A DNA stretch of 64,000 nt from the NCBI GenBank assembly GCA_002633005.1, contig NMRA01000270.1:394345-458344 (forward strand), given 5' to 3'. Origin of the DNA: Phoronis australis. Its lineage: Eukaryota > Animalia > Phoronida. The notes beneath the pieces are model-generated. The model was given only the letters and a program-made list of their open reading frames with translations. It was not told the DNA's origin and made no database searches. Within the stretch, counting starts at the first letter, position 1. The number at the start of each line of letters is the position of its first letter. Positions 15,868 to 60,901 of the stretch are shown here, piece after piece. Both the position numbers and the translations under genes were made by a program.

Positions 15868-15984
15868 AACAGGTACCAGAGAACCAAACAGGTACCAGAG
15901 AACCAAACAGGTACCAGAGAACCAAACAAGTACCAGAGAACCAAACACGTACCAGAGAACCAAACAGGTACCAGAGAACCGAAC
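15868..15984. repeat. 19-bp minisatellite, about 6 copies
   Basis: caggtaccagagaaccaaa tandem units with no spacers. Confidence 0.95.
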
Positions 15985-18900
15985 GGCCTTATATCAGGCT
16001 TCCTGACACAGGGTTCTTGAGGACAGCAGTTCTTGTACAAATCTACAAGGTGCCATGAAACGATCACAGTTTCTAATGATAGAACTGTAAAAAGACACGT
16101 AACAATTGCGCCTCGTTGATTAACAAAATGAATTTTCTGATAGACTGGAAAACAACTTTCTGACATTCCGATTGGATAGATGTTGAGAAGTACAGAAGTA
16201 TACAGGTATATCTATGGTTTTCAGATATGCCTTTAAGGCTCGTGGCTACTAGAACAACAAGAGACTAAACTGATGTGTTCCACACAAGTCCATTTGGTGT
16301 TACTTGCCCAAGATCACACCACCTAGAATAAAATGATTCCTGCTAAATCCTGGACAAAATGTTTACAATAAACGACCAAACGAGACAAGAACACTGATGC
16401 CCACACACAGATTTCTGCGTATTGTTCATCATCTTCTCCAGAGATGGCGCTGAGAAAGAAATTGCAAAATTTGGCAATTATTTTTTCCGATATTGGTTCC
16501 GATGGTGTGGAAACTATGGAAAATTCAAAGTTATTTAGCCAAATTTCAAACAAAGATTAAGAAAATTTTAGACTATTATTATCCTGGCTTGTACCGTGTA
16601 CTATTATTATAAAACACCCTTTGGACAAAGTTTTCATTTTTACAGCCAGACAATCAGACTTTGAAAAAACAAATTGATAATTTTGTTATTTTTGGGCAAA
16701 ATACGAGAATTACTGCAACTGCTGGCGAAAATTACCATCAAAGCATTGGTAGCAATTTATCTCCCTTAGAATTAGACGAAGGCGAACTGACTCCGAGGCT
16801 GTGTTTGATATATTATTCAGTTTTTTAGTGCAATCCAATAATTGGACCAGAGAAAGTTCAGAAATCAAAAGACGCATGCTCTGCACATGCCAATGCCCGG
16901 GAAATTAGCTCAATTAAGGGAAATGATTGACCAACTTTGGGATTGCTAATAAGACGGGGTCAGATAAATTTTTAGTACCATCTCATTTATCAAATACCAG
17001 ACAACTGTGACTGCGATGGTCAGGAAGTGAATTGTAAAAATGCCGTAAGTACAACAGACAGGGGATTATCAACAGGACTCCACGTTTTTTCAACTGGGAA
17101 TTATATAGATTCATCATCCAGAACAGCCAGTATACCAGTAGCGACACCTAATGGCAGAAAAAAACTCCCAGCTCAGTCAATAGCCAAACAAAAGTCAAAA
17201 GAAACTTTACAAATGTAAAACAAGTTGACGACCAGTTGAAAAGTCGCCAGTGTTTCACTCACGCCACCTCAGGTTCCAGTTTGAACACATCCTGGCAGCA
17301 CATGGTATAGAGTATTTACGCAACATTTAAGTTCACAAAACACAATTTAGCAGCTACCTGTTACCATCAGAGGAAAAATCTACCAATACATTAGAGGGGT
17401 TTTCACAGGTATCAAAAGGCTTATCAACAAGCTTGTACAAGCTCACAATTCTAAAACACAATTCAGTAAAGGTGACTGACCCCCAGTGGTCAATACTGTA
17501 GTACTACTTTCTAGTTAGTGTCTTAAAGAGCGACATTCACTACGCGTGTAAATATATGGCCGGCAGTTATTAACTTCATCTCTTCTTAACAACCACCTTT
17601 TCTGGTTCTCATTAACGATCAATATCGTGGGCCTGAGTCAATGAACGATGAACAGTTCATTCACAATCATGTTCACAACCAATCTGTCACAATAATAACA
17701 TTGACAAAATGAAGTAATCCATACAAAAGAGACCCATTGATACACATTCTAAGAAAAAATACATGACATTAGTCAAAAAATAATCATTTTTTACAAAATA
17801 CCTAATAACTTGCTATAGTGTATAAGTTTGGTATCAGATGAATTAAACTACTGAAAGCATTCAGTGAACGCCCCTACTGACATAAGCACCCATCCCTACT
17901 TTTTAAAATTTCAGATCAAGCACTCACTGGTCAGCAAAGCACCCACATGTATTACGCTCACCAGAATTGATTTTCAAAATGGTAAAACATGCTTTCAACC
18001 GTAGAAACTGACCAGTGTAGGTGTAGCCAGGTGTTACAGTCATTGAACGGACATTTTTTTTCTCTTACTGTCTTGTGCAGTGCATAAAAAACAGCCACAA
18101 ATACCAACACTATAGTCAGCTACAACCTCTCATAATTATTTTTCCAAAAAAGAACTATTATTTTTCCATGGCTTTAAGAGCCCAGCTTCGTTTACCTCCG
18201 AAGCCAAAGTGACAGGCATGTCAGTGTTGGTAACATTGGAAGGTTGAACACAATGCAGCCCCATAAAAATTTGCAAAAAGCAAGACACCTATGTCAGATA
18301 ACATAAGCAACTCCGATAGCACGAAAATCAGGCTTTACAAGTGCTCGATGGATAGTGCAGCATTGTGAGTTCTCAAGTGCCGTGTACATTCAGGATAGGA
18401 GTTTTACGATTTTTTTTGAAGCTAAGAAGGAGCATAAAACAAAAACGACATCAGACAAAATCTAGTCATGACGTCGATACTTCTGCTTTGCTACCAACAT
18501 ACCTTCTTGCTGCTGAATGTACCTATTAGGACATTGTGACATGATCAAACTAGAGTAAAAATTCTTCATTTTGGGACAAAAGTGATTGCTAGTTTTCAAT
18601 TTTAAGAGGCTCGCCATATTGTTGCAAATGCTCAAAATTTTACCAAAGGTAGTTTGGTAATAACTACACCAAACAAACCGTGCTTAAACCAAAGTAGACT
18701 TTCTTGAGAAGTTATTTTTGTTGGCAAACTTAAAAAAATCAAATTTCGCATGTCCACCATATTGTATCCCGAAAAGAAGAATTTTTAATCTGTAGGTTTG
18801 ACTTTCAGAAAACGCATGCTTTTTCTGCATTAAAACCTACAGTCTTCTCCACAATTGGCTAAGTACAGACTGGTGGATAAGGTCCTAAATAAAATTCATA

Positions 18901-28708: not shown

Positions 28709-28981
28709 CAAGGTACCTAAACTACACGGTCAACGGACTCATAAACACGGGTCACGGACTCATCGGCTTCCTGGGTCAGCTGACATCTTCATTTTGTCCG
28801 TGACCCGTGTTTGGCGGTCCGTTAACCGTGTTTCCTCGTGAATGTGAGTCCGTGTCCCGTGTATTTGGGTGCGTGGATCGTGTTTTTGAGTCCGTTCCCG
28901 TGTTTGTGAGTCAGTGGACGGTGTTTGCAGGTCCGTGAGTCGTGTTTATGAGTCCGTTGACCGTGTAGTTAAGGTACCTTG
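28709..28981. mobile_element. Palindromic MITE with internal repeats of about 20 bp
   Basis: TIR of about 40 bp caaggtacctaaactacacggtcaacggactcataaacacg; internal gagtccgtnnnccgtgttt repeats. Confidence 0.85.
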
Positions 28982-35839: not shown

Positions 35840-36947
35840 CGAGAAGGGATATTGCAACCCCATCCCTGTAAACTAGCATCGGTGTAGAACACACAGTCAG
35901 GGTCACCGAGGTACACTGGAGCAAAGCAGTGAACAACATTAGTGGTTCACCAAGATAGATCTTGATAAGCAAGTTGACTAAGGACATGAAACTCTCAAAG
36001 TTATGGCCGGGTTGCTGCAGAGCAACGTTCTTGTCTATTTCTAGCTGCTTTGTAAACAGTTGCGCATAGCGATTGCCAGGTTGGGTTGCCAGTAATGTAC
36101 CCACTAACTTTGCAACGTCCCGTACGGAGACACGATTCATACCTAAAAAATCATTAAGTGGAGAGATAATCTTCTCGGCTTTGGAGGATTGTTCTCGAGT
36201 CAATATGGAACCCTAAAGAGTCTATTTCCTGAGAAGGTGTCGAAACACTCTTAGTCTTACTGAGTGTGAAACAAAGATCTTGTAGTAATGTTGCTGTCAG
36301 TACCCCATCATTTTCACTCTTGCCAGGGTCAGAATTCACAATTAAGGTGTCATCTATGTAGGCCGTTATAGTGACATGAATGCGGCGAAGTTCCGCCAGG
36401 GGCACCTTAAGCAACTTAGTGAAGATACGCGGTCCTGAACTTAAACCATTCGGCAAAGCCGTAAATTGGTAAAGCGCGTTATCATGCCTGAATCGCAAGT
36501 ATTTCCAGTGATGTTTGGCTATTGGGATGCTATAATAAGCGTCGGACAAATCTAAGCTGATTAAGTAACAATCCTGCGTCACTAAGCGAAGTGCCGATTC
36601 AAAGGTATCCATTTTGAAATGATGATAAGTAACATGGTGTTTAAGGTCTTCAAATTAAGAATAAACCGAAACTCATTTGCAACTTTCTTAGGTCGGAGAA
36701 AAACGGGAGTCATAAATTGTCCAGGAGAGTGAGGACAGCATTCAATGACTTGTTTAGCCAGCATGGATTGAATTTCCCTACGCAGGAACTGTTGCTCAAG
36801 TGGCGAAAATTTTGCTTTGATACCTGGTTGTGTTTGGGTAGGAAGCAGGTCAAATTCAATTTCATAGCCGGTGACAATGGCCAGTATGCGAGGATCCTTA
36901 GTAATTTGACGCCACTTAGGGACACAGTAATTAACCCCTCTGGCCAA
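35840..36947 (-). pseudogene. DIRS reverse transcriptase and N-terminal RNase H, frameshifted
   Basis: ORFs 36582-36947, 36154-36612, 35811-36203 and 35713-35916 carry consecutive RT/RH motifs in different frames. Confidence 0.9.
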
Positions 36948-38876
36948 GGAGGTCTCAAGGTCAGAGAGGATATTTTACTTACGGAGGATGAGTCTATTTC
37001 CGGTTGGCAGTCGGTCTGGTGGCTGTGTTTGGCTTCCATGACGGTTGCTGTTTGTGTGTGTACTGTTGGCCTGTCAAGAGACAATGCAAGAGCATTAGTA
37101 GCAGATTGACAAACGTGTCCACTACAAGCTGCATCCCGCATAAAATTCGGTGCATTCGACAGTACAAAGTAATGCTTACCTAAGAAGGGGCGATAGCCGT
37201 GTTGTGTCTGGCGCTGATAGGCCCATCTGTAGGAGGCAGGGTAGGGCGACGGCCGGCGTGTCGTGTGTCTCGCAGTAATGGGAGACCGGGCCAGATTAAG
37301 GGCCTGAGAGGCCTGCTTACACTTCTCCCCCAACTGGTCTCCAAACAGGAGCTTGTCGGAGGTACTGGCCCTGTTGAGCGCCGAATGGTACTTGGAGTTA
37401 AGATTTGGTTTGATAATGTCCCGTCGAGTAGAATTAATCTTTGCACTAGCATACCCCAGGAGACCTAGCGCGTCCACAGTATTATCCACCAAGTCCTTGG
37501 CATTTAGGTGTTTGGGAGCTGTGGTTATCAGGGTGTCAACGAGTTTAGTCTGGGGAATGGCCGCCCTGGCTATTGCCAATAGCGGAGTTGCAACGCCGCC
37601 ATATTGGAAATGGGTCAGAATGTTGCATTGTGGTTACAATGGTAAACTTCAGTAAACAAGTATGTTGGCAACCGTGCGGGCGAACGGGCTACGGGGAGGT
37701 TATACGTGTTGTGTGCCTGGCATGCTATAATACCAGTTAGCGAAATAAAAAAATTAGTTACTACCTGTTTCCCAAGGATCAAGAACTGCGTTAAACATGG
37801 GTCAGAGACATCGGTAGAGCTGGTAGCAAAGGCCGACTTCGTGAATTCTTTCCGACTTCGTAGCATAAAGTGTGCAGCGCTCATTTTGAGGGCGGCAAGA
37901 AAACGTATCTTAGAAACTGCCCAACAATATCTCCCTTCAAAGAAACAGTAACAAATACTCCACGGCGGTTGGTAGTNTTAGGTCGGAGAAAACGGGAGAC
38001 ATAAATTGTCCAGGAGAGTGAGGACAGCATTCAATGACTTGTTTAGCCAGCATGGATTGAATTTCCCTACGCAAGAACTGTTGCTCAAGTGGCGAAAATT
38101 TTGCATTGATACCTGGTTGTGTTTGGGTAGGAAGCAGGTCAAATTCAATTTCATAGCCGGTGACAATGGCCAGTATGCGAGGATCCTTAGTAATTTGACG
38201 CCACTTAGGGACACAGTAATTAACCCCTCTGGCCAAGGAGGTCTCAAGGTCAGAGAGGACCATGGATATTTTACTTACGGAGGATGAGTCTATTTCCGGT
38301 TGGCAGTCGGTCTGGTGGCTGTGTTTGGCTTCCATGACGGTTGCTGTTTGTGTGTGTACTGTTGGCCTGTCAAGAGATAATGCAAGAGTATTAGTAGCAG
38401 ATTGACAAACGTGTCCACTACAAGCTGCATCCCGCATAAAATTCGGTGCATTCGACAGTACAAAGTAATGCTTACCTAAAAAGGGGCGATAACCATGTTG
38501 TGTCTGGCGCTGATAGGCCCATCTGTAGGAGGCAGGGTAGGGCGACGGCCGGCGTGTCGTGTGTCTCGCAGTAATGGGAGACGGGCCAGATTAAGGGCCT
38601 GAGAGGCCTGCTTACACTTCTCCCCCAACTGGTCTCCAAACAGGAGCTTGTCGGAGGTACTGGCCCTGTTGAGCGCCGAATGGTACTTTGGAGTTAAGAT
38701 TTGGTTTGATAATGTCCTGTCGAGTAGAATTAATCCTTGCGCTAGCATACCCCAGGAGACCTAGCGCGTCCACAGTATTATCCACCAAGTCCTTGGCATT
38801 TAGGTGTTTGGGAGCTGTGGTTATCAGGGTGTCAACGAGTTTAGTCTGGGGAATGGCCGCCCTGGCTATTGCCAAT
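36688..38876. repeat. Near-identical duplication of about 0.9 kb of DIRS gag/pol (36688-37580 vs 37978-38876)
   Basis: Direct sequence match; a single n at 37977 marks the junction. Confidence 0.9.
37581..37976. mobile_element. End of a DNA element inserted in DIRS gag (possibly ISL2EU/Harbinger-like)
   Basis: Copy A reads gccaat|agcggagttgc, copy B reads gccaat|tgtgc (empty site); family call is an inference from the AT|AG terminus. Confidence 0.45.
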
Positions 38877-39735
38877 TGTGCAGACTTCAACTGGCCCTCT
38901 TTGAATTTCAGTTTTGTGGTTTTGCACTACGTCTGCGATTTCCTCGTTCAATTCAGTCTTGTGGACTGTGATGTTGTCGGGCCGGGGATGTTTATCATGC
39001 GCCTACTTTATGTCGAAGGACTTATCACGCTCCCACAGGGAGTTGACGAGGGACGCAACAGCGTCCGATACTGGTGGCGCTTGTTCCTCGGATTGGTCCG
39101 CCAAATGGGAAGCCAGCAACCCGACAAACGGCGGCTCAGAACTGTGGGGGAGAGGCGCTCCAGAAAGTGGCAGGTCCGGCGAGGTGAGAAGGAGGACATG
39201 TGCAGTGTCAACTTACCATATTTGAAGGCAAGTACCCCATCCCGTTTAACTCAGGGCTTTTAATCACCTGGGCCTGTGCACAAGATCCCGAGAGATGCGC
39301 ACCCATCCTCCAGGAGGGTACCCTTTGTGTACTGAAATCTCGTGATTTCAAATGCCACTTGTGTTCTTGTTAAATATCTTTGTCAATTCCCTTTTGGTCT
39401 GAGGTTTCTTGTAACAACCCAACAAAACGCAATTTAACTTGATGAAAGGTAGACATTAAATATCAACAGGACGCAACAGCTTAGAAAAATTTTATCCCTA
39501 ATAGGATCGACAACCAAATATCCCGACGAAGCCAAGCTGAAGGAAACTTCAGCTTAAAGGTGTTCGTGCTTTTCTTTAACAACAGTTATCCAAGTGTAAC
39601 TCGAGTACATTGACTTTTTGGGGTGCGTGTATTCGAATGAAACATACTATTGCATCAAGGTGTATGCAGTGTTATCAAACATACAATTATGAAACTGCAT
39701 TTGACATTTTACATTTAATGCTTAGAGAAATCTCT

Positions 39736-39920
39736 TACTGAAGCCACACCAAGGAGTGGACGCTCTTGCACCCGCAGTGCACGTGTGCAGCCTCGCATTG
39801 TTCGGTGGGATTCACGCTCAGGCAGTATTGGTGTAACCACATCCCACAGTCGTCACATTGGATCCAATCCCGCTAGGTGCAGTTCTGGCAGTGACCAAGC
39901 GACTGGGCTTAGCAGCTGTT
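39736..39920 (+). repeat. Interspersed repeat of about 185 bp, copy 1 (others at 47424-47608 and 54035-54219)
   Basis: gtggacgctcttgcaccc...gtgaccaagcgactgggct shared by three loci; flanks of copy 1 differ. Confidence 0.9.
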
Positions 39921-41721
39921 TTTGCGAGTGTTTCTTCCGCGTGACATACAAGGTACTATGTGACATAGCCTGCAAAATACATTGATGATTGAATGCACTT
40001 GGGTGCTCACATGTTATACATGGTTTATATTCTTCCGTGATTTCACTGGCTTCAAATTGTTTGTAATGTTACATAAACTTTGTCGCCATTCACACTCACT
40101 CCCCTGTTCCCCAAAGTTACGGACAATTATTACTTCATCCAAACACTTACTAGAGCGGGTGTGACCTAACAGGTACAAGGAGCCCTAACGATTATGAAAT
40201 TTTGTTGCTACCTGATAACTGTAGAGTCAAGCTGTTTGTCACTCCGTATTATCTTTCTCCACAGTTGTGGACAATACCAGTGTGATAGCCATTGTGCATT
40301 TTTGATATGAAATTAACTTAACGGAAGATTATTTAGAACGTTGGGAATCCTCACATCCACAGCGACACAGCGTTTTATTTATTAAATGTGACCTTTTCCC
40401 CTGCACCTTGAAAGAATTGTAGGCATATTGGATGTTTATGCCTACAAAATTACTTTTTGCGACAATCCAAACTTAATTCAAATAGCAAGGAATAATATCT
40501 CATTGTAATTAACAATATCTCAATGGCAATTTCAAGAAGCAACCATTACCACTCCGTTGGGCACATGTATATCTTTAGGGTGGATAATATGGAACTGTAC
40601 CCGGATGAAAGAGTCAACATTTCATTTAACGCATTTTATTTAACACTACAACTAATATCATACAACAAATTGCTGGTAGTTTAGTTATCCTCTACGACAG
40701 TCATTTCTGTAATCAAACCTCTTTTTATGGTAGCGATAATGGCGAATGGATAATTTGGCATCTCTTTCGGCTTTCGACATTCGCTGTCAATCTTAAAAAT
40801 ACTGTGATCCGTTGAGATAATGGTGCTGCAAACGATATGTTTTAGAAACAGTAAATCTGACGATATTTTCAATAAATTCTTTCATTATTCAAAGTGAATA
40901 ACTGTCACTTTAGCATCCCCACCGGTTTGTGCGTTCCATGCCTCTATAAAGTCGCAAAGCAAAGCAGTCCAAGTACCTGAGTGGCAGCTCCCCAGTCTTG
41001 AGTGTCTCCTCTCGGAGTACTCTATGAACAAGGCTTTACCTTGACATGGAGCCAGTTTCAATGGTACTCATAATGTCGTCTGTTGTACTTTCGTAGCAAC
41101 AACTTGTTGCTTCATCTCTTTCTTGATATTTATCAAGTACCTTTAGGAATGTGTTACCACAAGAGAATAGGTTACACTGGTTATTGCTTTTCCATTTTTA
41201 ACACTTAAAATCTTGCTCCAAAATTTCTAATCCAATGACCCAGTTTAGGTAAAGAATGGACGTTGATACACTGGGCACGGGCTAACTTGTACAAAAAACA
41301 GGTATTGGAATGACCAACGAAAAAAAGGAAAAATCTCCCAGATGATGTTTCGTTCCACAAATATATACGTTTGTATGATAGATATAGGTTTAACAACCCC
41401 CTCACCTATAAAATTTGGCACCTTTTAACTAAACATTCGTAGTGCGCTATGTCGCCTCGTTTACCGTGCTAACATGCGAAAATAGATTTTTTTCTTAACT
41501 GTGTGAAAAAATCTCATATTACTCAGTGTGACTTCATTAAATTTATGTGTGCATCATTAATCACAGGCACTGCATGCACTGTTATGCGACACTTTTAGTT
41601 TTGCAGTTAGCTTATGTGTGACAAAATCCAAAAACCTGGAGCAGTTTAATGTAGGCTGTGCATTGATGCTTTTGCTGTCCCTGCTCATAAGCTAAAGTGA
41701 ACAGTTCATTTTAAGCAGTTG

Positions 41722-41756
41722 CTGACTTCGACATTTGCTACATTCCTCCCTTCCCT
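41722..41756 (-). other. Polypurine tract plus truncated 3' LTR
   Basis: AGGGAAGGGAGGAA (41743-41756) directly followed by TGTAGCAAATGTCGAAGTCAG, 20/21 identical to the start of the 5' LTR at 46372. Confidence 0.8.
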
Positions 41757-42614
41757 AAAGAAAAGGAGTGGAGCCCTTATAGCAAATGGCGGACGTCATT
41801 CCAAACATCTAAACATAAACCCTTGACTAAGATAACAGTGACAAGACCTTAAACCCTATAACTAACATGATGAGGAGTGACCTTGTAAAGTAAGAATTAC
41901 TGGTTAAAATTTAATCCAACTATTCCCCCCCACCAAAAAAAAACAAATACTAATGAGACACACAGTCATAGCATATATCCACTATAGTAGTCGAACATGA
42001 CTAAAAAATAAAAAAAGAAAAATATGCTCCACTAATACCAGTACCAGGGAGCATAGAATTTCTGGACTATGCTATGACAACACTCTGATTGTTGGTGATG
42101 ACCTGGCGCGAGAATATATACAAAAAACTGAACAAAGAAATGCATACTGGCCATAAAATGAGTATTCATTATACTTTAGTAGTGATGCACTGAGATATAA
42201 AATGATATAGTCTTTCATAACATATATAGACTATATAGAAAACTTAACTTAATATACAAAAATAAACTATATAGTAACAACTAATACATAATACTATAGA
42301 AAGTAGTCTTGAATATTTAAATAGACTATATATATATATAGTATGAAAACATAACTTGTAACAAAAATATACTATATAGTTTTAACGAATAAACACTACT
42401 ATATAAAAATGGACCAGTACGCTACTTAACTTCTTATATTACTTAATACGGACATCACAATTCTCCTAGTACCAAGGGTAAGTCACAAACCCAGAGACCG
42501 TAGTCAGACTCAGAGTTTATAATAACGGGCAGTTACCCAAGGGACTAGAAGAAAACCTGGGGCATAGGTTATGACCCTGGCACACCAGGATGCTAAATCA
42601 CTTCTAACAATTTG

Positions 42615-43750
42615 TTAGAGATGGTAAAGCCGCCTGGCATTCCTGGTGGAAACAGCCAGGATGTCACGAAGCGGACGACGAGAACGCTGCGCCACCTCCA
42701 TAGCTACTTCCCCCAGGTATTGGGGCTTGCCCAATGGCGAGGTGCGGTGAATCAGATTCCAGGAGGAGTCGATTCATGGGAACCTCTTGTAACCCCTTAT
42801 TTTGGAACTTTAGAAACTGCCGCACATGACCGGCGAAGCCGAAATGGCAGTTTCTAAAGAACCCCGTCCACCGGAGTACATCCTCGGGCGCACCTCCAAA
42901 ACAATGGAGATGCAAACCCAAGTCTGCATCACAGTGGCGCTTCAGGAGATCAAAGACAAAGTCTTGTCCCTCCAAGAAGCGTGGATTGTCGGGGGAACCA
43001 CGAAGGTGGAACACCACGACTTTGTTTTTTGAAGCTGGGGGAGCTGGCCGGAACCTCTGCAAAGATCCGCACCATCTCCTCCAAAGCGTCTTTTTGGATG
43101 GCCAAGTCTTCCCGGGCCTCCAGACTGACCTCGCCTACGCCAGCTACAAAGGGCTCCTTCAGTAGCTGGGGGAGACACTCTAGAACACCGGGATTCGTTG
43201 TTCCAACCAGTTTGGGGTGGATGCCCACCACAGCCTTCCAGCCATGTGGGAAACGGGAAGCCTCAACGTACTTCCAGTTTTCCACATCGCAGAAAACTGC
43301 AATCCCACCAACCAACCGTACAGGTTTTTGAGGAACCCGTGGCAGCTGGGTGCTGAGCATCTGGTCGATCGTCAGCATCCTGGTCTCAGTGATATGACGC
43401 TGAGCCCAGGATGCCGACAAGCGATCCAGATGGAAGTGGGCATCTATAGCCAAATCAGGAGGTGGTCCTGATTTAGCTTTAGACGCGGACGGCGAAGCCC
43501 CCGATGAAGGTCGACCCTTTAGGGGCCTGCCAGGTGGCTGGCGGGCTTTTGTCACACACGACATCCGAGGGTACGAACCAGCATCCCGCACCCTTTGTGG
43601 AGGAGTGATCTTCTGCCTCCAGTGAAGCAGACGGCCAGCCTGATGGTTTAGGGTGTTACCAGAAGACGCCTCCTGAATATTAATAGTGTCCATAGGGGCA
43701 TCTACAAATTCAGGAGGTGAATCCTTCAAAACGGCAGGGTTGTGGGGCAC
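42615..43750 (-). pseudogene. TatD-family metal-dependent DNase ORF, element-encoded, two frameshifts
   Basis: DAHFHLD, VFCD, GIHPK, GVGEVSLE, VFHLRG, HLHCFGG, LLLESDSP, then PQYLGEVA..VA.R....L..STRNARRLY* in another frame; intronless. Confidence 0.9.
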
Positions 43751-44304
43751 CTTTGACCCCCTGAAATGGGATCCGGAACCAGGGTGTGCACAAAATCTAA
43801 TGACTCAGAATTAGTAACAACCTGGGTACTAGATACCGCTTTACCACTCAACTCAGACTTATCTATCAAATTAACCGGAACTAACACTGGGGTATTAATC
43901 ACATCAGTATCAGTAATGGGTAATTCAATCGGACCATTCTGAGTGAGCACAGAACTTTGGGAGGCTGGACACTTCATATCACCAAGGGAATTCTGAGCAC
44001 AAGGAATATCAGTAGACATGTCAACCAAATCATGAACTACATCATAAGATCTAGCCAAGACAGGTCGACCTCTCCCCCGACACTCATCGTGCACAGAAAT
44101 ACCTCGAGAAGAAGTGGACAAACTCCCTGCCCTAAAACAGTCTAACAGATTAGTCGATAGGCGTTTGATGTTTTTATTTAATGAACCTAATAGACCATCT
44201 GTGGGACTGAATTTCTTACTTGGGCGGTCTGAGGATACCCTACTATTGGTATCACGAGATTGGTCTGGAGTTAGACCTGATCGTCCATCCCCAACTCGTT
44301 TAAA
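43726..44304 (-). other. -1 frame (pol-position) ORF starting at slippery heptamer TTTAAAC; no enzyme motif recognised
   Basis: T TTA AAC (44298-44304) lies in the Gag frame 8 codons before its stop; the -1 frame is open from there to 43726. Confidence 0.65.
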
Positions 44305-45728
44305 TCATCAGACTTATCCCCAAAGGATGTACGACAAATTCTAGCAGACTGCGGGCTACGGCACGCAGACTGGTTGTGACCAAACTTACCACACTTAAAA
44401 CACAATACTGAAGGTCTCTGTGGGGAAGTTTGGGGGGACCTAGATAGTGGAGGGGATCTAACTGGTTTTGGATTAGAATCCAACAATTTTAATACCCTCG
44501 ACAAATCTGAGGTAATGCCCCTAAAATTCGAATTCATAGTCTGGGACATACTCTTAAGTTCTCGATGTATCAGGGCATTGTCTTCTTTAAGACCTCCTAT
44601 TTCCGAGTTGACCTTAGCCATCTGAGACTCTAAAGCATGCAGCCTAGACTCAACCGCAGAGTTTGAAGCAGAGGATGCTATTGGACCGAATTTAAGTGCA
44701 GGTTTTTTGTGCTGCGAAAGCAGGTTGACAGAAGCTTCGTCATTGCGCGATGGTGAGCCCTCGAACCAAACAGACCGACGGTTTTGATTTGCCATCAATT
44801 GCTGGGTCGTTGCGAACCATGCAGCTTTAGACTCTGCCTCAGCTAGGGACACGGGATGAGTTCATCACCTGCGTACCTACAACCTTATCCCGTAACTCAA
44901 GGGAGAAACGGAATACAAGATCTACTGTTTCTTGCTCCGAAGGGTTCGGGAAGGCTTTTAAAAACAACCTGTTTAACCTACACGCCCAGTTCTCAATAGA
45001 TTCCCCCGGCTTCTGCTTGGCGTATTGGAATTCAAGGCGTAGGACCTGGGTGCAGTCGGTCGAAGAAAAATGTTCTGGCGTGTGCAACCACGTCATCGAA
45101 ACCAGAATCTGGGTTCGTTCTCATGAAGTTAAGGAAGAAATGCAAAGCCACATTGTCCAAACACATTCCTAACTCCGAGACGCACTTGTCTTTGGACCAT
45201 AAGTTGTCCTTGGCTAAGCGCTGAAATTTCCAAAAAAAGTCGTCCCACTTGCCTTTTTCCCCTTGAAAAACTAGCTTAGACGGGGCATTTGGCCTTAAAC
45301 TATAGGGACGGGTGTGGGTAGACGGTAACCGTTCGGCTACCAGAACTCGGGGCAGGCACAGACGAAGAAGAATCCTGCTTAGTGGAGTACTTCCATCTTA
45401 TTGTAACAGGGGATTTGTTTAACCTGTCACAGGCCTGGGCAATGCCACTTAAGTCCTGGGGCAAACGGGTACGTACAGGACTACCCAGAGGAGAGGAATC
45501 TCGGGACTGAACATCATCATACTGGGTGAAATCAATGCCAGAAATAGCACTCCTCGTCAACCTCCATCCGGAATGGATGTGGTTAATATTTTCTGGGGTT
45601 ATCGGCTGAGTTTGCCGAAAAGCCAGAATGGATTGGGCAATATCTTCTGTCATGCCCGAGAGCTTGAATAACTCTTGGGAAAGACAGAAGTTTACCGGAA
45701 TCCTGTCTTGGAAAGACATCCTAAACAC
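44271..45728 (-). pseudogene. Gypsy-type Gag with N-terminal HhH, capsid-like region and CCHC zinc knuckle (frameshifted)
   Basis: PVNFCLSQELFKLSGMTEDIAQSILAFRQ (HhH-like); PSKLVFQGEKGKWDDFFWKFQRLAKDNLWS; FQYAKQKPGESIENWACRL; CFKCGKFGHNQSAC. Confidence 0.85.
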
Positions 45729-46056
45729 ACGGGGCTTCGTCTTAGGAAAACCACGTGGTCACGTGACCTATTCTATAATTTTTAGAAAGGTTCAAAACTC
45801 TAACTAAAATACAAAATAATAAATACAAACCATACTATATACAATTATACCAATAATAAATACCTATTTACATAAACCTACAATTCCTACACTAAACTAA
45901 TACCAAACGCTTGAAATTCTGGTAAACCTGAACTCGGGCACTGCAAAAGCAGTGACGCACGTGGCTGTCAAAATGGGTACGAGAAAACAAGTTATGAAAA
46001 GTTATTTCCCTCTTCCACCGAAAGACATGCACGCCGCTCCAACACTGGGAAATAGG

Positions 46057-46070
46057 TGCCGACTGCGCCA
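46057..46070 (-). promoter_or_regulatory. Primer-binding site complementary to the tRNA-Ser 3' end
   Basis: TGGCGCAGTCGGCA (copy 2: TGGCGTAGTCGGCA, 52672-52685), 2 nt after the LTR end ...ACAACA; complements the metazoan tRNA-Ser end TGCCGACTRCGCCA. Confidence 0.85.
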
Positions 46071-46072
46071 AA

Positions 46073-46372
46073 TGTTGTAATAAAGGGGTCGGCTGGCCAA
46101 GCAGACACACGAGTTTGGCCTATTAACGCGGTGCCAGAGAAAAGTCCGGAGTATACTCACATTACGTCCGTACAGGAAGGCAGCGAACTCCAGAAGGCCC
46201 AGATGATCTTGTCACGTGGTCTTGAAGGGTGACTGGTCACGTGATAGAAGGGTGAACTCGGCTGGGCTCTTCTGGCGTTAGATGTCGCACCAGGCCTAGA
46301 CCAACATTGTTAACAAAAGGACATCACAACATAGAGACGCCACAGCCGAGACTGACGTCGACATTTGCTACA
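46073..46372 (-). repeat. 5' LTR (300 bp, TGT...ACA)
   Basis: Bounded by the PBS on one side and by the break in the RecQ reading frame on the other; its start matches the post-PPT stub; contains two CACGTG E-boxes. Confidence 0.8.
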
Positions 46373-46930
46373 CTGTCAACAGACTTGCAGACAACAACAG
46401 TGTCATACGTAACTAGTCCAATCTGGATGTCTTCGCACATGGTTTTGCAAGCCGTGGCAGTCAGAGCAAATACTTATGCTTGGGGGAAAAATGGCTCCTA
46501 AGTCCTTAATACGGGCGTAATCCACGCCAAAGTCATCGCCCCACTGGACAACGCAGTGTGCTTTTTCAACCACAATGGTCAAATCCTTGTTTTGCCATAC
46601 CTCACATAAGAACATGCTCATGACCGAGTCATGCAGAATGTCTACAGGGTGACCTAACACAAAAGATGGACTCATCAGCTTTAACTTTTCACCCATACCT
46701 TTCCCTACGCGCACGCACAAGTCTCCCAGCCTTTGCTCCTGTTCCTCAATGATAGCAGTCAAGGGACTCAACAGGATGACACAACAATTGCCACGTCCAG
46801 TCTCGTCAAGATAGTGTGGCAAACATTCAAAGATTTATTACTTGCCGTAGTCTGTTGGCAATACAGCTTAAGTGTCCTTGGCTACAGATATCAAACTCTG
46901 AAACTGACCAGGCCGCAAAAGAGGGTATTG
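46373..46930 (-). pseudogene. Intronless RecQ-type SF2 helicase N-half (AcademH-like), cut by the LTR
   Basis: LRPGQ (Q motif), AVLPTDYGK (I), SPLTAIIEEQ (Ia), VVE(K/E)AHCVVQWGDDF (II), ALTATA (III), ends at KSVD; contains stops and frameshifts. Confidence 0.85.
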
Positions 46931-47423
46931 GGTCTTTCTGAGGTTATTAACGCTATATAGAGAAAACTTCGTGTGCAAAGACCTCGACAACGCTTTAAGT
47001 CCACTCAGCAACAAATGTATTTCCACCATTTAAAATGTAATTAATCGTATTTACTAGTAATACACCTGAAAAAATTGCTCACGGACTACCAAATTCCAGG
47101 AGCTTAGGTGCTAGAATTGCGCTGAACACCTTCTTAATGCGCAACAGCTTGGTAGGAGGACTTCCAGATGCCGTGCCACGCGTCGCAGGTCTCTATAACT
47201 TCGTGCTGCACGAAGTAAACCCATCAAGGACAGCACCCTCATTAAAGTCCTGAAGGTTAATATTTATGAATATGCATCGGTTAAGTAAACTTTCCGTCAG
47301 TTTTTTCTGCGTGTAACGTTATAAGCCAGCATCCCTTACAAAAACCCATTTCATATTGCACATCACTTACTCAGTTCACCTGTAGTAATCATTTCTTTCT
47401 TGCCCCAAAGCACGTGATTTTTG

Positions 47424-47608
47424 TACTGAAGCTACATGAAGGGGTGGACGCTCTTGCACCCGTAGTGCACGTGTGCAGCCTCGCATTGTTCGGCGTGATT
47501 CACGCTCAGGCAGTATTGGTGTAACCACATCCCACAGTCGTCACATTGGATCCAATCCCGCTGGGTTCAGTCCTGGCAGTGACCAAGCGACTGGGCTAAG
47601 CAGTTGTT
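47424..47608 (+). repeat. Interspersed repeat of about 185 bp, copy 2
   Basis: Matches 39736-39920 and 54035-54219. Confidence 0.9.
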
Positions 47609-47733
47609 GTTCCAAGTGTTGGGCATGTTTTGCCTTCATTCTTAAACCCTGTTAACTTGGTTCCTTTTATTTATAGGGGAAAACAGTAGACTGGGGCTCG
47701 GTAACGCTACGTCCTTGTTAAAAAGAAGAGTCC

Positions 47734-50569: not shown

Positions 50570-52987
50570 CTGACTTCGACATTTGCTACATTCCTCCCTT
50601 CCCTAAAGAAAAGGAGTGGAGCCCTTATAGCAAATGGCGGACGTCATTCCCAACATCTAAACATAAACCCTTGACTAAGATAACAGTGACAAGACCTTAA
50701 ACCCTATAACTCAAATGATGTGGAGTGACCTTGTAAAGTAAGAATTACTGGTTAAAATTTAATCCAACTATTCCCCCCCACCAAAAAAAAAACAAATACT
50801 AATGAGACACACAGTCATAGCATATATCCACTATAGTAGTCGAACATGACTAAAAAATAAAAAAAGAAAAATAGGCTCCACTAATACCAGTACCAGGGAG
50901 CATAGAATTTCTGGACTATGCTATGACAACACTCTTATTGTTGATGATGACCTGGCGCGAGAATATATACAAAAAACTGAACAAAGAAAAGCATACTGGC
51001 CATAAAATGAGTATTCATTATACTTTAGTAGTGATGCACTGAGATATAAAATGATATAGTCTTTCATAACATATATAGACTATATAGAAAACTTAACTTA
51101 ATATACAAAAATAAACTATATTGTAACAACTAATACATAATACTATAGAAAGCATAGTCTTGAATATTTAAATAGACTATATATATATAGTATGAAAACA
51201 TAACTTGTAACAAAAGTATACTATATAGTTTTAACGAATAAACACTACTATATAAAAATAATGGACCAGTACGCTACTTAACTTCTTATACTACTTCGAT
51301 GAATGTTTTCAGTCATCCAGTTGGGTAAAAGAAACAACGTAGCCATCTCTACATAGCGTAAGTCCAGTAGTAGATTTATTTATTGTTTCTTATACTACTT
51401 AATACGGACATCACAATTCTCCTAGGACCAAGGGTAAGGCACAAACCCAGCGACCATAGTCAGACTCAGAGTTTATAATAACAGGCAGTTACCCAAGAGA
51501 CTAGGAGAAAACCTGGGGCATAGGTTATGACCCTGGCACACCAGGATGCTAAATCACTTCTAACAATTTGTTAGAGATGGTAAAGCCGCCTGGCATTCCT
51601 GGTGGAAACGGCCAGGATGTCACGCAGCAGACGACGAGAACGCTGCGCCACCTCCATAGCTACTTCCCCCAGGTATTGGGGCTTGCCCAATGGCGAGGTG
51701 CGGTGAATCAGACTCCAGGAGGAGTCGATTCATCGGAACCTCTTGTAACCCCTTATTTTGGAACTTTAGAAACTGCCGCACATGACCGGCGAAGCCGAAA
51801 TGGCAGTTTCTAAAGAACCCCGTCTACCTTAGTACATCCTCGGGCGCACCTCCAAAACAATGGAGATGTAAACCCAAGTCTGCATCACAGTGGCGCTTCA
51901 GGAGATCAAAGACAAAGTCTTGTCCCTCCAAGAAGCGTGGATTGTCGGGGGAACCATGAAGGTGGATCACCACGACTTTGTTTTTGAAGCTGGGGGAGCT
52001 GGCCCGAACCTCTGCTTGTAACAGGGGATTTGTTTAACCTGTCACAGGCCTGGGCAATGCCACTTAAGTCCTGGGGCAAACGGGTACGTACAGGGCTACC
52101 CAGAGGAGAGGTATCTCGGGACTGAACATCATCATACTGAACATCATCAATGCCAGAAATAGCACTCCTCGTCAACCTCCATCCGGAATGGATGTGGTTA
52201 ATATTTTGTGAGGTTAACGGCTGAGTTTGCCGAAAAGCCAGAATGGATTGGGCAATATCTTCTGTCATGCCCGAGAGCTTGAATAACTCTTGGGAAAGAC
52301 AGAAGTTTACCGGAATCCTGTCTTGGAAAGACATCCTAAACACACGGGGCTTCATCTTAGGAAAACCACGTGGTCACGTGACCTATTCTAGAATTTCTAG
52401 AAAGGTTCAAAACTCTAACTAAAATACAAAATAATAAATACAAACCATACTATATACAATTATACCAATAATAAATACCTATTTACATAAACCTACAATT
52501 CCTACACTAAACTAATGCCAAATGCTTGAAATTCTGGTAAACCTGAACTCAGGCACTGCAAAAGCAGTGACGCACGAGGCTGTCAAATTGGGTACGAGAA
52601 AACAAGTTATGAAAAGTTATTTCCCGCTTCCACCGAAAGACATGCACGCCGCTCCAACACCGGGAAATAGGTGCCGACTACGCCAAATGTTGTAATAAAG
52701 GGGTCGGCTGGCCAAGCAGACACACGAGTTTGGCCTATTAACGTGGTGCCAGAGAAAAGTCCGGAGTATACTCACATTACGTCCGTACAGGACGGCAGCG
52801 AACTCCAGAAGGCCCAGATGATCTTGTCACGTGGTCTTGAAGGGTGACTGGTCACGTGATAGAAGGGTGAACTCGGCTGGGCTCTTCTGGCGTCAGATGT
52901 CGCACCAGGCCTAGACCAACATTGTTAACAAAAGGACATCACAACATAGAGACGCCACAGCCGAGACTGACGTCGACATATGCTACA
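50570..52987 (-). mobile_element. Second, further-deleted copy of the TatD-carrying LTR element
   Basis: LTR 52688-52987, PBS 52672-52685, HhH region joined to the TatD C-half near 52015, PPT and stub 50570-50604. Confidence 0.85.
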
Positions 52988-53545
52988 CTGTCAACAGACT
53001 TGCAGACAACAACAGTGTCATACGTAACTAGTCCAATCTGGATGTCTTCGCACATGGTTTTGCAAGCCGTGGCAGTCAGAGCAAATACTTATGCTTGGGG
53101 GAAAAATGGCTCCTAAGTCCTTAATACGGGCGTAATCCACGCCAAAGTCATCGCCCCACTGGACAACGCAGTGTGCTTCTTCAACCACAATGGTCAAATC
53201 CTTGTTTTGCCATACCTCACATAAGAACATGCTCATGACCGAGTCATGCAGAATGTCTACAGGGTGACCTAACACAAAAGATGGACTCATCAGCTTTAAC
53301 TTTTCGCCCATACCTTTCCCTACGCGCACGCACAAGTCTCCCAGCCTTTGCTCCTGTTCCTCAATGATAGCAGTCAAGGGACTCAACAGGATGACACAAC
53401 AATTGCCACGTCCAGTCTCGTCAAGATAGTGTGGCAAACATTCAAAGATTTATTACTTGCCGTAGTCTGTTGGCAATACAGCTTAAGTGTCCTTGGCTAC
53501 AGATATCAAACTCTGAAACTGACCAGGCCGCAAAAGAGGGTATTG
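52988..53545 (-). pseudogene. RecQ-type helicase fragment, copy 2
   Basis: Same motifs as 46373-46930, with VVEEAHCVVQWG. Confidence 0.85.
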
Positions 53546-54034
53546 GGTCTTTCTGAGGTTATTAACGCTATATAGAGAAAACTTCGTGTGCAAAGACCTC
53601 GACAACGCTTTAAGTCCACTCAGCAACAAATGTACACCATTTAAAACGTAATTAATCGTATTTACTAGTAATACACCTGAAAAAATTGCTCATGGGCTAC
53701 CAAATTCCAGGAGCTTAGGTGCTAGAATTGCGCTGAACACCTTCTTAATGCGCGACAGCTTGGTAGGAGGACTTCCAGATGCCTTGCCACGAGTCGCAGG
53801 TCTCCATAACTTGGTGCTGCACGAAGTAAACCCATCAAGGACAGCACCCTCATTAAAGTCCTGAAGGTTAATATTTATGAATATGCATCGGTTAAGTAAA
53901 CTTTCCGTCAGTTTTTTCTGCGTGTAACGTTATAAGCCAGCATCCCGTACAAAAACCGATTTCATATTGCACATCACTTACTCAGTTCACCTGTAGTAAT
54001 CATTTCTTTCTTGCCCCAAAACACGTGATTTTTG

Positions 54035-54219
54035 TACTGAAGCTACATGAAGGGGTGGACGCTCTTGCACCCGTAGTGCACGTGTGCAGCCTCGCATTGT
54101 TCGGCGTGATTCACGCTCAGGCAGTATTGGTGTAACCACATCCCACAGTCGTCACATTGGATCCAATACCGCTGGGTTCAGTCCTGGCAGTGACCAAGCG
54201 ACTGGGCTAAGCAGTTGTT
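54035..54219 (+). repeat. Interspersed repeat of about 185 bp, copy 3
   Basis: Matches 47424-47608. Confidence 0.9.
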
Positions 54220-56033
54220 GTTCCAAGTGTTGGGCATGTTTTGCCTTCATTCTTAAACCCTGTTAACTTGGTTCCTTTTATTTATAGGGGAAAACAGTTG
54301 ACTGGGGCTCGGTAACGCTACGTCCTTGTTAAAAAGAAGAGTCCATTATTGTCATAGCATGACAATAATCTTTCTAGTTTGTTTTTGTTCTTGCGTATTT
54401 TAATCCTTTTTATTGCTTCAGGCTTTGTAATAAAGTTTGTTTTGGGGGAATTGATCAGCACTGTCCTTGAAACCTCCATATTTTGTGTGCAAGTTCTAGA
54501 ACAAACTGATACATGTACTTATGTTGTGGTGCGTGTTTTTTTGAGGTTCACACAACATATCAACATTTCATGATAGTGACTTCATAATGAACTACATTGG
54601 CTACAGAGTAATTTCACCGTGGCGGTATGCACATCATTAAAAACCTAACTTGGCAATTATTAACTGGTAAAACCAATAACTGTCAGTGACTATGTATCAT
54701 AAACGATACTAATTACACGGAAAAAACTATTGTCACTGCCACAGTAGTCCACTTTCTTCCTCAGTGCTGAGATCTTCCTTTCCTGGGACTTGATAATAAC
54801 TTTGCTGACAAAGGGGGTCAACACTGACTTGGAACTAGCAGGTGGTGACGAAATAATGGAAGTAAAAAGAAGCGTGTGGCTTAGGATCACTGTTATGACA
54901 GGAGGCTGCAAATATTCTTTAATAAAAATAATTGAATATTCACGCAATGTTACGAATTAGTGTAACCGCACTTTAATAGTAAACATGGTTAATTATCTGA
55001 TTCGCGTAACATAGCATGGAAACAGTAACCACTGTTAATTTTAGGACATGTAAATATATATGTATAAACTTAACTATTACACAACACATATGTTTTTGAT
55101 GCAACAACTGTAGAGTAATAATTACCTTCGTTTCTTGGTTAACAGATAACCATGTCTAGACTGCGTTGACTTAAACAATGTGCAGAATTTGCCCTTCACT
55201 AATCCTTCAGACAGTTTATGTGCGTTGACAAAAAAGGGAAACTTTTTCATCGTTATGACTTGGAATAGTTTTGGCAATGAATGTTTTCTTTCGACTGCAT
55301 AGGCTCAGAATCAGTTTACATATATGTCTTCCATCTCTGTAGTTACTTGGTGTTCTGATAAATATTTCTGCATTTCTGTTATTATCTGTTATAGTATGAG
55401 AACGGCTTTTACTCGAAAATTCTGTTCACAATAATAAATAAATAAACAAAGAATATGCATCACACATCTAAATAGCATTTAATTGAAACAAATCACTGTA
55501 AGCTTGGCGTTTTTTTTTGGTTTTTTATAATGTAGCAAGTAAAACCTTGACAAGCTTATAATAAAAAAGCTGTTTGTTGCTTTTATCATGAAAAGAACCT
55601 CTCTCTTCCTCTACCAGAAAATAAGAACCAATCATCGTATTTAGATTCTTTATCTTTTGATGCTCATCTACTTCAACTGCTCTTATCATAAGTAAATCTT
55701 TCGCTTTCTTGAGCTCCAGTGTTTAACATCGACATCGTCATCGAGCCCGTTGATTTTTCTTAAAGAACTCTACTTAGTTTCCATTGCACCCACTTTTTGT
55801 GACAGTACTTGCATCTTGTACAGACTTCTTTTTATGTCGTCCAATGGCATGTTCAGGGGACACAGATATTCATCTACGATATCTTGGCTGTAGGCGAAAG
55901 GAGCAGCATTAGGAAAGAACGAAAAATTTAAAAAAGGGCTCAATGTTGTATCATGACTCATTAAAAATAAATTCTATTAATCACGTTAGGAAACACCATA
56001 TGCGAAACTTATTCTAATGACATGCGAATTGTA

Positions 56034-57810: not shown

Positions 57811-60472
57811 AACTATGATGTCGGGCCACCATTTTTGGGGCTGAATATCGGCCACATTTTCCTCTGAAAAAATATTGAAAAATCATGCGAAAGTTCCCTC
57901 ATGAAGCCGAAAAATTACCTTCAAGTGATTGAAAATTCCCCCTGAGATTTGAATTATTGAAACTCACGCATGTGACATCGCAGTGCAAAATATTAGTTTC
58001 GGCTGCTTGAGGGCTTCAGGCAGAGCCAATGAAGGCTTGGCAACAGGTTGAGGGTTCTATTGATGATGATCAAGACATAGAATTTTCCCCTCACCCCACA
58101 AAATTCCCGTCTCAAAATTTGCATGCACTTTTACCTCGGATGAACGAGGTCCATGAGTGTCTTAGCTAAACTAATGTGAGTGAGGCTTGCAGAACACAGA
58201 CCTCAAATACTGATTGATTAAATCAAGATGCAGGACATGTTAGCAACCTATTTGAAACCTTAAGAATTACGTTTAAATAACAGACTACATTTTGTGCAAG
58301 TTAATCTTTCTGATCATTGTTGTTTAGTATATAAGGGGAATCCAAAGTTTAATAACCTTGACAAAGAAGTCCTGCAATATTTTACTCGATTCTATACTTT
58401 ACCTCTAGCTGCCTTCAGGTCATATTCTACAACTTTTAACCTATGGGTTAAAGCCGCTATCTGCTCATCCTTGAAAAAGCAAGGACAAGAATTGTGCAGG
58501 GGATCTAAGAAACTACAGGATGTGGATGGAGGGTTGGCAGTTGGAAAAAGCTGATGAGGTGATGTTCCTGGGGGTGCAGAGGGGTTAGTAGGGGCAGGTG
58601 GAAAGTGGTGGTATTTAAGGGGGGACAAGACGCTGGTTAAAATCTAGGGACAGGGGCCCACACGGAGGTAGGACAAGTAGAACCATGTGAGACAGCTCAC
58701 AAGAGAGGCATAAGGTGCTGGGTAAGCTACTGGAGGGGGCACAAACAAGCAGGGCCAGTCACGGGTGAGGTGTGAGCAGCAGGGGTGGACACAGGTGGAG
58801 CATAAAGCACAGGAGATCTTGGGAGGGGAGCAAGGTGTAGGTGTGGTCACAGAATAGGGAGGATGAGAAGCAGAGCCATTTATGGAGGGAGGGTGACAAG
58901 ACGAGGTGAATGGAAAAGAGGGAAGAACATTATATTGGGCACATGAAAGGGGATAGGAAGGAAGAGATGAATCGATAACCAGTAAAGAAGAGGACTGTGG
59001 TAAGTTATAACACTCCACAGCAATTGTCCCAGAAGCAAAGGGAATGAGTAGCTCAACAGCACACTGATACGCTGCTTCAGCAGTGGCTTCCACTCTCTTT
59101 TTCTTTTTTTTGGCAGCTGAAAGTACAATGATCACTAGGATAACTTCTGGCAATTAACGTCATTCAAGATTTTTCTGCAAAACGAACATAGTCTAATATT
59201 CTATAAAACTATTTCATTAGTTTTTATTGGTAGAATTTGAAATTTTAAAACCACATGCAGCACTCTATGAGAACCACTAATTTGTCTCATGTTTGTCTCC
59301 ATAGTGGATTCATTTACTAGCAAAGACCTAGTAAACTCTTTTATCGAACGTACCATTTAAATTTGTGTACTGCATCTGTGGATAACTTACCTTGTTCACC
59401 TCCATGGTTTTGCTTCACATTTTAACCTTTAATTTGAGAAAATATAAACAAACTTGAGGTAAAAGAAACATTATATTCATACAGTATTGCAATGAACATT
59501 TTATTGTTTTTCTAAATGTAAGTACATGTAAAAACTGTTGACCTCCGTTGAAGGTAGTTGTGTAACATCCCATAAAAGTTGCTGACTTCCATTACATATG
59601 AATTGGCAATTAGCTGTATAATTTTTGATAAAGACCTCTTGTGTTTACTCACTTATAGGTTCACCTTTCCCCGTCATCAGCATCGTCTCCAATACCTTCA
59701 CCAGCATTAGTCTTTTTCTTGTTGGTGTCTTTTCTTTTACACCTAAACAACAAAGTAAATAAAAAAATAGAGAGCTTCACGAGATCTAAACGTATACCAA
59801 ATTTCCAAAATATCCATCAAGTTATGCAGGAGATACACGACTTATACTCTAGCTTATGTTAAACTTAAACTGCACTTGGACTTTGTTGTACCGCATCAGC
59901 TGGTCCCAAATCGTTATGTTCTCTAACTGTTTCCCGTTATCTCTTTCAACACATCCATATCTATTGCAGGGTCACAAAAAAGCTACGATGGTCCGTTGTT
60001 AGGACTTTGCTGTAATAAAAACAGAAGACTGTTAACTTTTTAACCTGGTAACTAAATTATTTCGGTAATATGCAACACAGGAAATTTATTATTTATTATT
60101 GATGTGTTATTCAATTACCTTTCCCTCAATAACCTGAAACATTGATTATTTTCTTGAAAACCATCTGTCATGCAGTGGCAATAAATGGTTTAATCATTTT
60201 CCAACAGTTATCTTGAACAACAGTCGAGTTCATGCCAGTATTTAAAACAATTAATTTTGTTATTTTGTACATTCTCAGAAGATGTTGAAGAAGTAAGATA
60301 GGATATTTAGAAAAGCAATTATACATGATTGTCAACACATTGTTACTAAGTCATCAATATTTGAATAAATTCAATGTTTTTATAAGGCATGAATAAGTTA
60401 AACTCAGTCACGTCCTTTTAAAAAAGAAAACGTTAGCATGGACAATAATTACCGTGATCCTCCTCGTACAGG

Positions 60473-60901
60473 ACGGCAGCGAACTCCAGAAGGCCCAGAT
60501 GATCTTGCCGAGACTGACGTCGACATTTGCTACACTGTCAACAGACTTGCAGACAACAACAGTGTCATACGTAACTAGTCCAATCTGGATGTCTTCGCAC
60601 ATGGTTTTGCAAGCCGTGGCAGTCCTTAATACGGGCATAATCCACGCCAAAGTCATCGCCCCACTGGACAACGCAGTGTGCTTCTTCAACCACAATGGTC
60701 AAATCCTTGTTTTGCCATACCTCACATAAGAACATGCTCATGACCGAGTCATGCAGAATGTCTACAGGGTGACCTAACACAAAAGATGGACTCATCAGCT
60801 TTAACTTTTCACCCAAACCTTTCCCTACGCGCACGCACAAGTCTCCCAGCCTTTGCTCCTGTTCCTCAATGATAGCAGTCAAGGGACTCAACAGGATGAC
60901 A
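60473..60901 (-). pseudogene. Third copy of the LTR/RecQ junction, with two internal deletions
   Basis: Matches 46169-46781 but lacks about 135 bp of LTR and 42 bp of RecQ. Confidence 0.85.

Follow-up and report, generated by a model that had tools for sequence, protein, structure and literature searches.

A pol-less LTR element of Phoronis australis with a TatD nuclease domain in a predicted -1 frameshift frame behind Gag

Organisation of the element

The element described here lies on the minus strand of a 64,000-nt stretch of the Phoronis australis contig NMRA01000270.1 (assembly GCA_002633005.1, positions 394,345 to 458,344), called the window throughout, where it runs from position 46372 to 41722. 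It carries long terminal repeat (LTR) sequence, a Gag frame and a TatD nuclease domain, and its anatomy was read from the sequence, the reading frames and matches to Pfam profiles. A first-pass annotation of the same DNA had described an LTR retroelement with TatD as cargo, having a primer binding site (PBS), a polypurine tract (PPT) and Gag followed by a -1 slippery site in sense order, and all of these parts are present:

46073..46372 (-), 5' LTR of 300 nt with TG...CA ends, at a depth peak in the DNA contigs of another individual
46059..46070 (-), PBS, TGG-initial, 2 nt beyond the 5' LTR
44271..45719 (-), Gag, from the ATG at 45719 to the stop at 44271, with an HHH N-terminus, capsid-like helices, a coiled coil and a CCHC knuckle (44402-44376)
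44298..44304 (-), -1 slippery heptamer T TTA AAC in the Gag frame, where the -1 frame opens
44267..44292 (-), predicted hairpin 5 nt past the heptamer, a possible stimulator
43454..44304 (-), low-complexity linker of about 285 codons, without stops in the frame that continues to TatD, with one break near 43756
42615..43453 (-), TatD domain of class II (HxH), with the ligands H, H, E, H, H, E and D present
41757..42614 (-), A+T-rich 3' untranslated region
41743..41756 (-), PPT of 14 purines
41722..41742 (-), 3' LTR remnant of 21 nt, 20/21 nt matching the 5' LTR start; the remainder is lost here

The PBS is one that we take to match tRNA-Ser, and the leader between it and Gag measures about 340 nt. 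The window copy is decayed, with six frame breaks: three in Gag (near 45326, 45080 and 44850), one in the linker and two in TatD (near 43025 and 42718). TatD had been annotated as an intronless open reading frame (ORF) in the sense orientation; it is in sense, lacks introns and exceeds the PF01026 cut-off with both of its halves (27.3 and 34.8 bits against 27), but it does not form a single ORF, being split into three pieces in three frames. Because only 21 nt of the 3' LTR are left, the left junction having been deleted, the target site duplication (TSD) is unreadable in this copy.

Absence of pol and the frame behind Gag

Pfam profile scans of the element, the Gag-to-TatD stretch included, found no protease, reverse transcriptase (RT), RNase H or integrase. 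The LTR signals of an autonomous Gypsy element (TG...CA ends, PBS and PPT) are present, and the pol of autonomous Ty3/Gypsy elements, which comprises those four domains, is absent. Having kept its cis signals and gag and having no pol, the element is a non-autonomous Gag-bearing LTR element and not an autonomous Gypsy one. The Gypsy lineage originally proposed finds indirect support in a PNMA/Arc-like Gag and in the protease join of a Mytilus relative described below, but there is no RT by which the element could be placed.

From the heptamer onwards, the -1 frame is open over a long distance. Its stops at 44316, 44310 and 44307 are followed by none through 192 codons, and over 44304-43757 it has 0 stops, the two remaining frames having 12 and 26; none of 20,000 shuffles of this stretch was stop-free. 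Past the break near 43756, a second stop-free piece of 102 codons leads into the HxH motif of TatD. Among ten slippery-type heptamers listed for 46060-42400, that at 44304-44298 is the one that lies in the Gag frame just before the stop and opens a long -1 frame. The linker read in this frame contains no pol domain and has no match among the sequences compared. As there is no pol and TatD is reached in the -1 frame, TatD fills the slot of Pol, and not the 3' position of env or extra ORFs to which it had been assigned.

The Gag and TatD domains

The Pfam matches in Gag are weak and stand in the expected order: HHH_3 (E=0.004), PNMA (E=0.007) and zf-CCHC (E=0.04), with an Arc2 capsid match at E=0.52. 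The PNMA, zf-CCHC and Arc2 matches are all under the cut-off; the CCHC knuckle is visible in the sequence. The start of Gag (45662-45560) is a helix-hairpin-helix motif, matched by HHH_3 at E=0.003-0.004 in both window copies. A fold search with a single-sequence model of a Gag piece, itself of low confidence (pLDDT 49), gave nothing clear, and a PDB sequence search with the same piece returned 0 matches.

All of the metal-ligand motifs previously named for TatD were located: HxH at 43444, GE at 43135, HxR at 43011, HCF at 42912 and ExDxP at 42762. The domain, which is about 26-29% identical to prokaryote TatDs, has the HxH motif and the E, H, H, E and D ligand positions of class II TatD proteins, as defined in the available excerpt of PMC10085689. 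In the same excerpt, TatD enzymes are described as 3'-5' exonucleases on single-stranded DNA (ssDNA) and as apurinic/apyrimidinic (AP) endonucleases on double-stranded DNA, and TATDN2 is described as stripping the RNA of R-loops (excerpt of PMC10711561).

Copies in another individual and transcription

The family was followed in the contigs of four DNA runs, all from one sample of one other individual. These contigs cover the whole element, with a summed depth far above that of the flanks, which is not equal to a copy number. In run X3, single deep contigs reach a depth of 485-797 against 31-64 for divergent contigs, suggesting ten or more near-identical copies. Seven contigs of run X4 run out of the LTR into flanks that are dissimilar. 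In this way, copies sharing one layout were found to be dispersed, the deep contigs having about 10-20 times the divergent depth, and the flanks may include those of solo LTRs. In other copies the PPT is joined to further LTR sequence, in contig as well as RNA joints, so that the 3' LTR is longer there.

The stretch 43658-44404, which includes the heptamer, is covered by overlapping deep contigs (run X3, records 19 and 20, with depths of 485 and 644), and among the 24 loose ends listed, out of 390, none falls in 43450-44400. Since the deep contigs are colinear over the heptamer and no linker loose end is listed, the pol-less layout is the common one. TatD depth in the contigs is similar to Gag depth. 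The contigs range down to under 90% identity to the window, and the family is therefore not only a recent one. At the break near 43756, an indel relative to the window is found in a deep contig of all four DNA runs and in 10/11, 28/31 and 9/9 RNA reads (47/51). Each of the other five breaks likewise has indels listed for some of the runs, of sizes that fit the frame changes between the stop-free pieces; judging from these six positions, most copies would read through all frames. The multiple copies, their varied flanks and the many relatives treated below uphold the original description of a real LTR element with TatD cargo.

Three raw RNA runs (X5, X6 and X7) gave reads that are mostly 90-95% like the window. 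The first mates of X7 are almost all from one strand, which is the element sense if the library was stranded in the usual way, and the coverage in this run is even, with mean depths of about 10 (Gag), 9 (linker) and 7 (TatD). Five joints are listed in the RNA runs, and none is an internal splice. One joint of X5, 43554-46630, extends into the flank and its ends are non-canonical; it is therefore read as a genomic deletion allele and not as a splice. Given the low RNA depth, these data are only modest evidence for one genomic-length message. Twelve reads of X7 share a loose end at 43300, where mid-TatD is joined to PBS-like sequence that an LTR-like end of another kind precedes; they may come from a shorter derivative or from a second LTR subfamily with the TatD of the element.

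Relatives and origin of the TatD

By a HMMER scan with its C-terminal half, TatD belongs to a large invertebrate family of 538 clusters (E<=0.001), in which the best identities are about 40-50%; among the best 150 of these 538 clusters, 60 are at least 430 aa long. Word-indexed searches of each TatD half against longer proteins gave 0/463 and 0/386 candidates. The N-terminal domain of the relatives covers about 130 aa upstream of a linker (P0004-P0109 and others) and has no Pfam match; it begins with C-x-x-x-x-C...H...H, continues with a helical body and ends in NSPA-x-L-x-HWR, and some relatives have an extra helical domain at the N-terminus. By eye, the alignment suggested a resemblance between this domain and the linker of the element, which was rejected, as the domain profile has no match on the element at E<=10.

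Twenty relatives were looked up, and the named ones include proteins of Mytilus and Pinctada, a JGI 'TatD DNase family protein' and three 'Sedimenticola' proteins from metagenome-assembled genomes (MAGs). The last three (P0004, P0012 and P0162, labelled 'Sedimenticola sp.') are on contigs of 3.7-6 kb and are probably animal host DNA in symbiont bins. In Atlas, the nearest structural cluster of P0005 is 97% eukaryote, with Mollusca the commonest group.

Among 3,936 candidates of 1,160-3,310 aa, P0160 alone passed. This Mytilus edulis 'tatD' gene model (CAG2255195.1) combines a gag-asp protease (E=1.4e-7) with a TatD of the family and also has a weak integrase-H2C2 fragment (E=0.017). Its protease-TatD join supports a parent layout in which pol was followed by TatD. 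An Atlas search with P0160 gave no usable match.

With an alignment (A2) as the query, locus scans listed 12, 80 and 80 loci whose identity is 24-37%; all 80 loci from genomes are prokaryote records, and 35 of these formed the outgroup of a tree. The first-pass annotation had proposed a tree against both host and bacterial proteins, and the bacterial part was carried out as a quick tree of 50/102 family and 35/80 prokaryote rows, host TATDN1/2/3 being left out. The window TatD groups with the family against the 35 prokaryote TatDs with a support of 100, a grouping that is partly circular because the family rows were picked by similarity to the window. Viral contigs scanned with a degenerate motif yielded 0 matches.

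Proposed mechanism and alternative explanations

We estimate at roughly 0.55 the probability that the window holds a decayed copy of a multi-copy, pol-less LTR family which makes Gag and, by a predicted -1 frameshift, a Gag-linker-TatD protein, and which is mobilised in trans. An element without copying enzymes would need a helper to move. A parent gag-pol-TatD Gypsy element most probably lost pol together with the N-terminal domains of its third ORF, so that TatD came to lie in the frameshift frame; the derivative would then have spread via the RT and integrase of a helper. Intact copies would translate Gag, and the predicted frameshift would give a minority Gag-linker-TatD product replacing Gag-Pol. 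This product may co-assemble with Gag, placing the nuclease in the particles at a low ratio to Gag. The weakest step concerns the work of the enzyme there: it is doubtful, though conceivable, that particle TatD acts as a 3'-5' exonuclease/AP endonuclease trimming the 3' ends and leftover RNA of reverse-transcription intermediates, a role favoured because of the exonuclease, AP endonuclease and R-loop RNA activities known for TatD enzymes and TATDN2. Only tentatively can it be proposed that the whole of Pol was swapped for an active TatD with the frameshift kept, giving nuclease-armed capsids at fixed stoichiometry, in which case the family would be a parasite of helpers and a natural capsid-targeted nuclease under selection.

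Several observations weigh against this interpretation. The N-terminal domain is common to 51/60 long relatives (by a profile built from the same 60) and is lacking in the window TatD, whose branch in the quick tree measures 1.15 against a median of 0.58 and which reads GEVSLE where the alignment has a near-invariant G and D. Gag or pol domains were found in 0/36 of the long relatives scanned, and the fusion layout is therefore without a second example. The predicted hairpin is no stronger than those of shuffled sequences (z -0.8 to -1.4). No contig or read outside the window spans Gag to TatD, and beyond the loose ends and substitutions listed there are 366 and 503 more, among which a rare pol-bearing partner, or stops at other places in other copies, could be hidden. 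The level of expression is low, at 357-629 reads per run in 1.6-1.8 Gb, and in X5 and X6 opposite-strand reads outnumber sense reads over the 3' half. Finally, the listed substitutions, taken from a pre-filtered list, show no third-position enrichment over all coding parts (18/48, p=0.32), in the linker (3/17) or in Gag (5/14); TatD has 10/17 (p=0.027), which is one of three sub-tests.

TatD could be a separate protein, translated from a spliced or internally started message, with the -1 continuity a by-product of pol loss. The relatives, being stand-alone long proteins free of Gag and pol domains, would agree with this, as would the four in-frame ATGs of the linker; we consider it unlikely, since the open frame goes back precisely as far as the heptamer, with the first ATG about 95 codons further on, a scan of the linker sequence found no strong acceptor-like splice site, and the three RNA runs, at their low depth, contain neither a splice joint nor a read excess over TatD.

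It is likewise improbable that TatD is a passenger, brought into frame by a chance deletion (1 in 3) in a derivative that was recently amplified in trans, and useless to the family. The long branch, the lost N-terminal domain, the weak hairpin and the lack of third-position excess in the linker and Gag lists would suit such a passenger, and 12/25 X5 reads carry a further TatD frameshift at 42845. Yet all seven ligand residues are kept although the closest relative is only 38% identical to the window TatD, the third-position excess in TatD points the other way, and about 285 linker codons, which match none of the sequences compared, are nevertheless stop-free. The spread of contigs to under 90% identity also disagrees with a purely recent amplification.

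A further alternative, which may be called very unlikely, holds that Gag-TatD is a natural capsid-targeted nuclease degrading the nucleic acid of helper or competitor particles, to the gain of the element or the host. The layout does resemble engineered capsid-nuclease fusions, first tried on Ty1 (PMC5035972, in excerpt), and the excerpts of PMC10085689 and PMC10711561 have TatD enzymes digesting ssDNA and RNA 3' ends; however, an element that keeps its LTR, PBS and PPT and occupies many sites cannot destroy its own genome efficiently.

The refuting case named by the first-pass annotation, a host TATDN copy that was processed and inserted a single time into a dead LTR element, is hardly credible and is contradicted by the copy number, the varied flanks, the TatD depth matching that of Gag, the lack of a poly(A) or TSD around TatD, and the large divergent family to which the nearest relatives belong (169 bits, the best prokaryote TatD reaching 71), on whose profile human TATDN1 and TATDN3 score far below E. 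coli YcfH.

Other features of the window

Two further features relate to the insertion site of the element:

50570..52987 (-), second copy of the element, without the stretch equal to 43061-45400
46373..46834 (-), insertion target, a RecQ-like helicase frame (TIGR00614, E=2.8e-7) broken by the LTR

The second copy lies within a segmental duplicate, as both of its flanks are shared and about 99% alike, and it is no independent insertion. In the flanks (39736-39932, 46373-47620 and 52988-54231), a RecQ-like helicase frame and a Cys-rich PHD-finger-like frame in three copies were found, which suggests that the insertion target is itself a large repeated DNA element. A third LTR fragment at 60465-60534 is internally deleted and shares its right flank with the other copies; deletions of this type are also seen as joints in the contigs of the other individual.

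A second, unrelated retroelement relic occupies 36154-39263 (-), with an RVT_1 match (E=7.9e-17) at 36157-36654 and about 0.9 kb in duplicate (36688-37580 and 37978-38876); its upstream frames are presumably DIRS-like. A 19-nt tandem repeat occurs at 15849-16000, and at 28709-28981 there is a small inverted-repeat element whose arms are 51 nt long.

Comparison with known systems

No report of TatD in a retrotransposon, Gypsy or LTR element was found in the full-text literature, a search that Repbase and Dfam lie outside, and none of a pol-less frameshift LTR element; the excerpt of PMC6962438 does not place TatD in any retroelement. Troyka elements were dismissed as a match, having CG ends (PMC12440569, in excerpt).

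Nuclease cargo of LTR elements has been described previously for the DEDDy enzymes of rotifers. In Juno and Vesta, two LTR retrotransposons found in bdelloid rotifers, ORF3 encodes a DEDDy 3'-5' exonuclease, for which the excerpt of PMC5408684 proposes a role in 3'-end processing. The likeness lies in an LTR element carrying a nuclease with its catalytic residues kept. There, the enzyme is a separate third ORF of DEDDy fold behind an intact pol, whereas the window element has a TIM-barrel TatD in the frame opened by the heptamer, the -1 slot, and no pol. That pol was lost and TatD kept behind the frameshift signal suggests a nuclease which works in the particle and is important enough to outlast the replication enzymes, and the role of enzymatic extra ORFs in LTR elements becomes directly testable.

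Gag-only non-autonomous LTR elements, such as plant TR-GAG, consist of LTRs, PBS, PPT and gag and are presumed to be mobilised in trans. Compared with TR-GAG as generally understood, the window family has also kept a slippery site, together with a long -1 frame that has an enzyme domain at its end.

Among class II TatD proteins, E. coli YcfH and YjjV and human TATDN2 and TATDN3 share the HxH and the E, H, H, E and D ligands with the window TatD (PMC10085689 and PMC10711561, in excerpt), and human TATDN2, as described there, has a long disordered N-terminal extension comparable to the window linker. The window TatD differs from them by lying inside a mobile element, without introns. P0160 of Mytilus edulis is similar in having TatD inside an LTR element, and the tree separates both from the prokaryote TatDs. 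Many 'tatD' gene models of marine invertebrates, some of them in symbiont MAGs, would by implication be element-derived.

In defective retroviruses, gag-fused cargo replaces pol and a helper is needed. The engineered fusions for capsid-targeted viral inactivation also join Gag to a foreign enzyme and are helper-dependent (PMC5035972, in excerpt). The window family differs from both in being natural and multi-copy, and in its join, which is a predicted -1 frameshift instead of an in-frame fusion.

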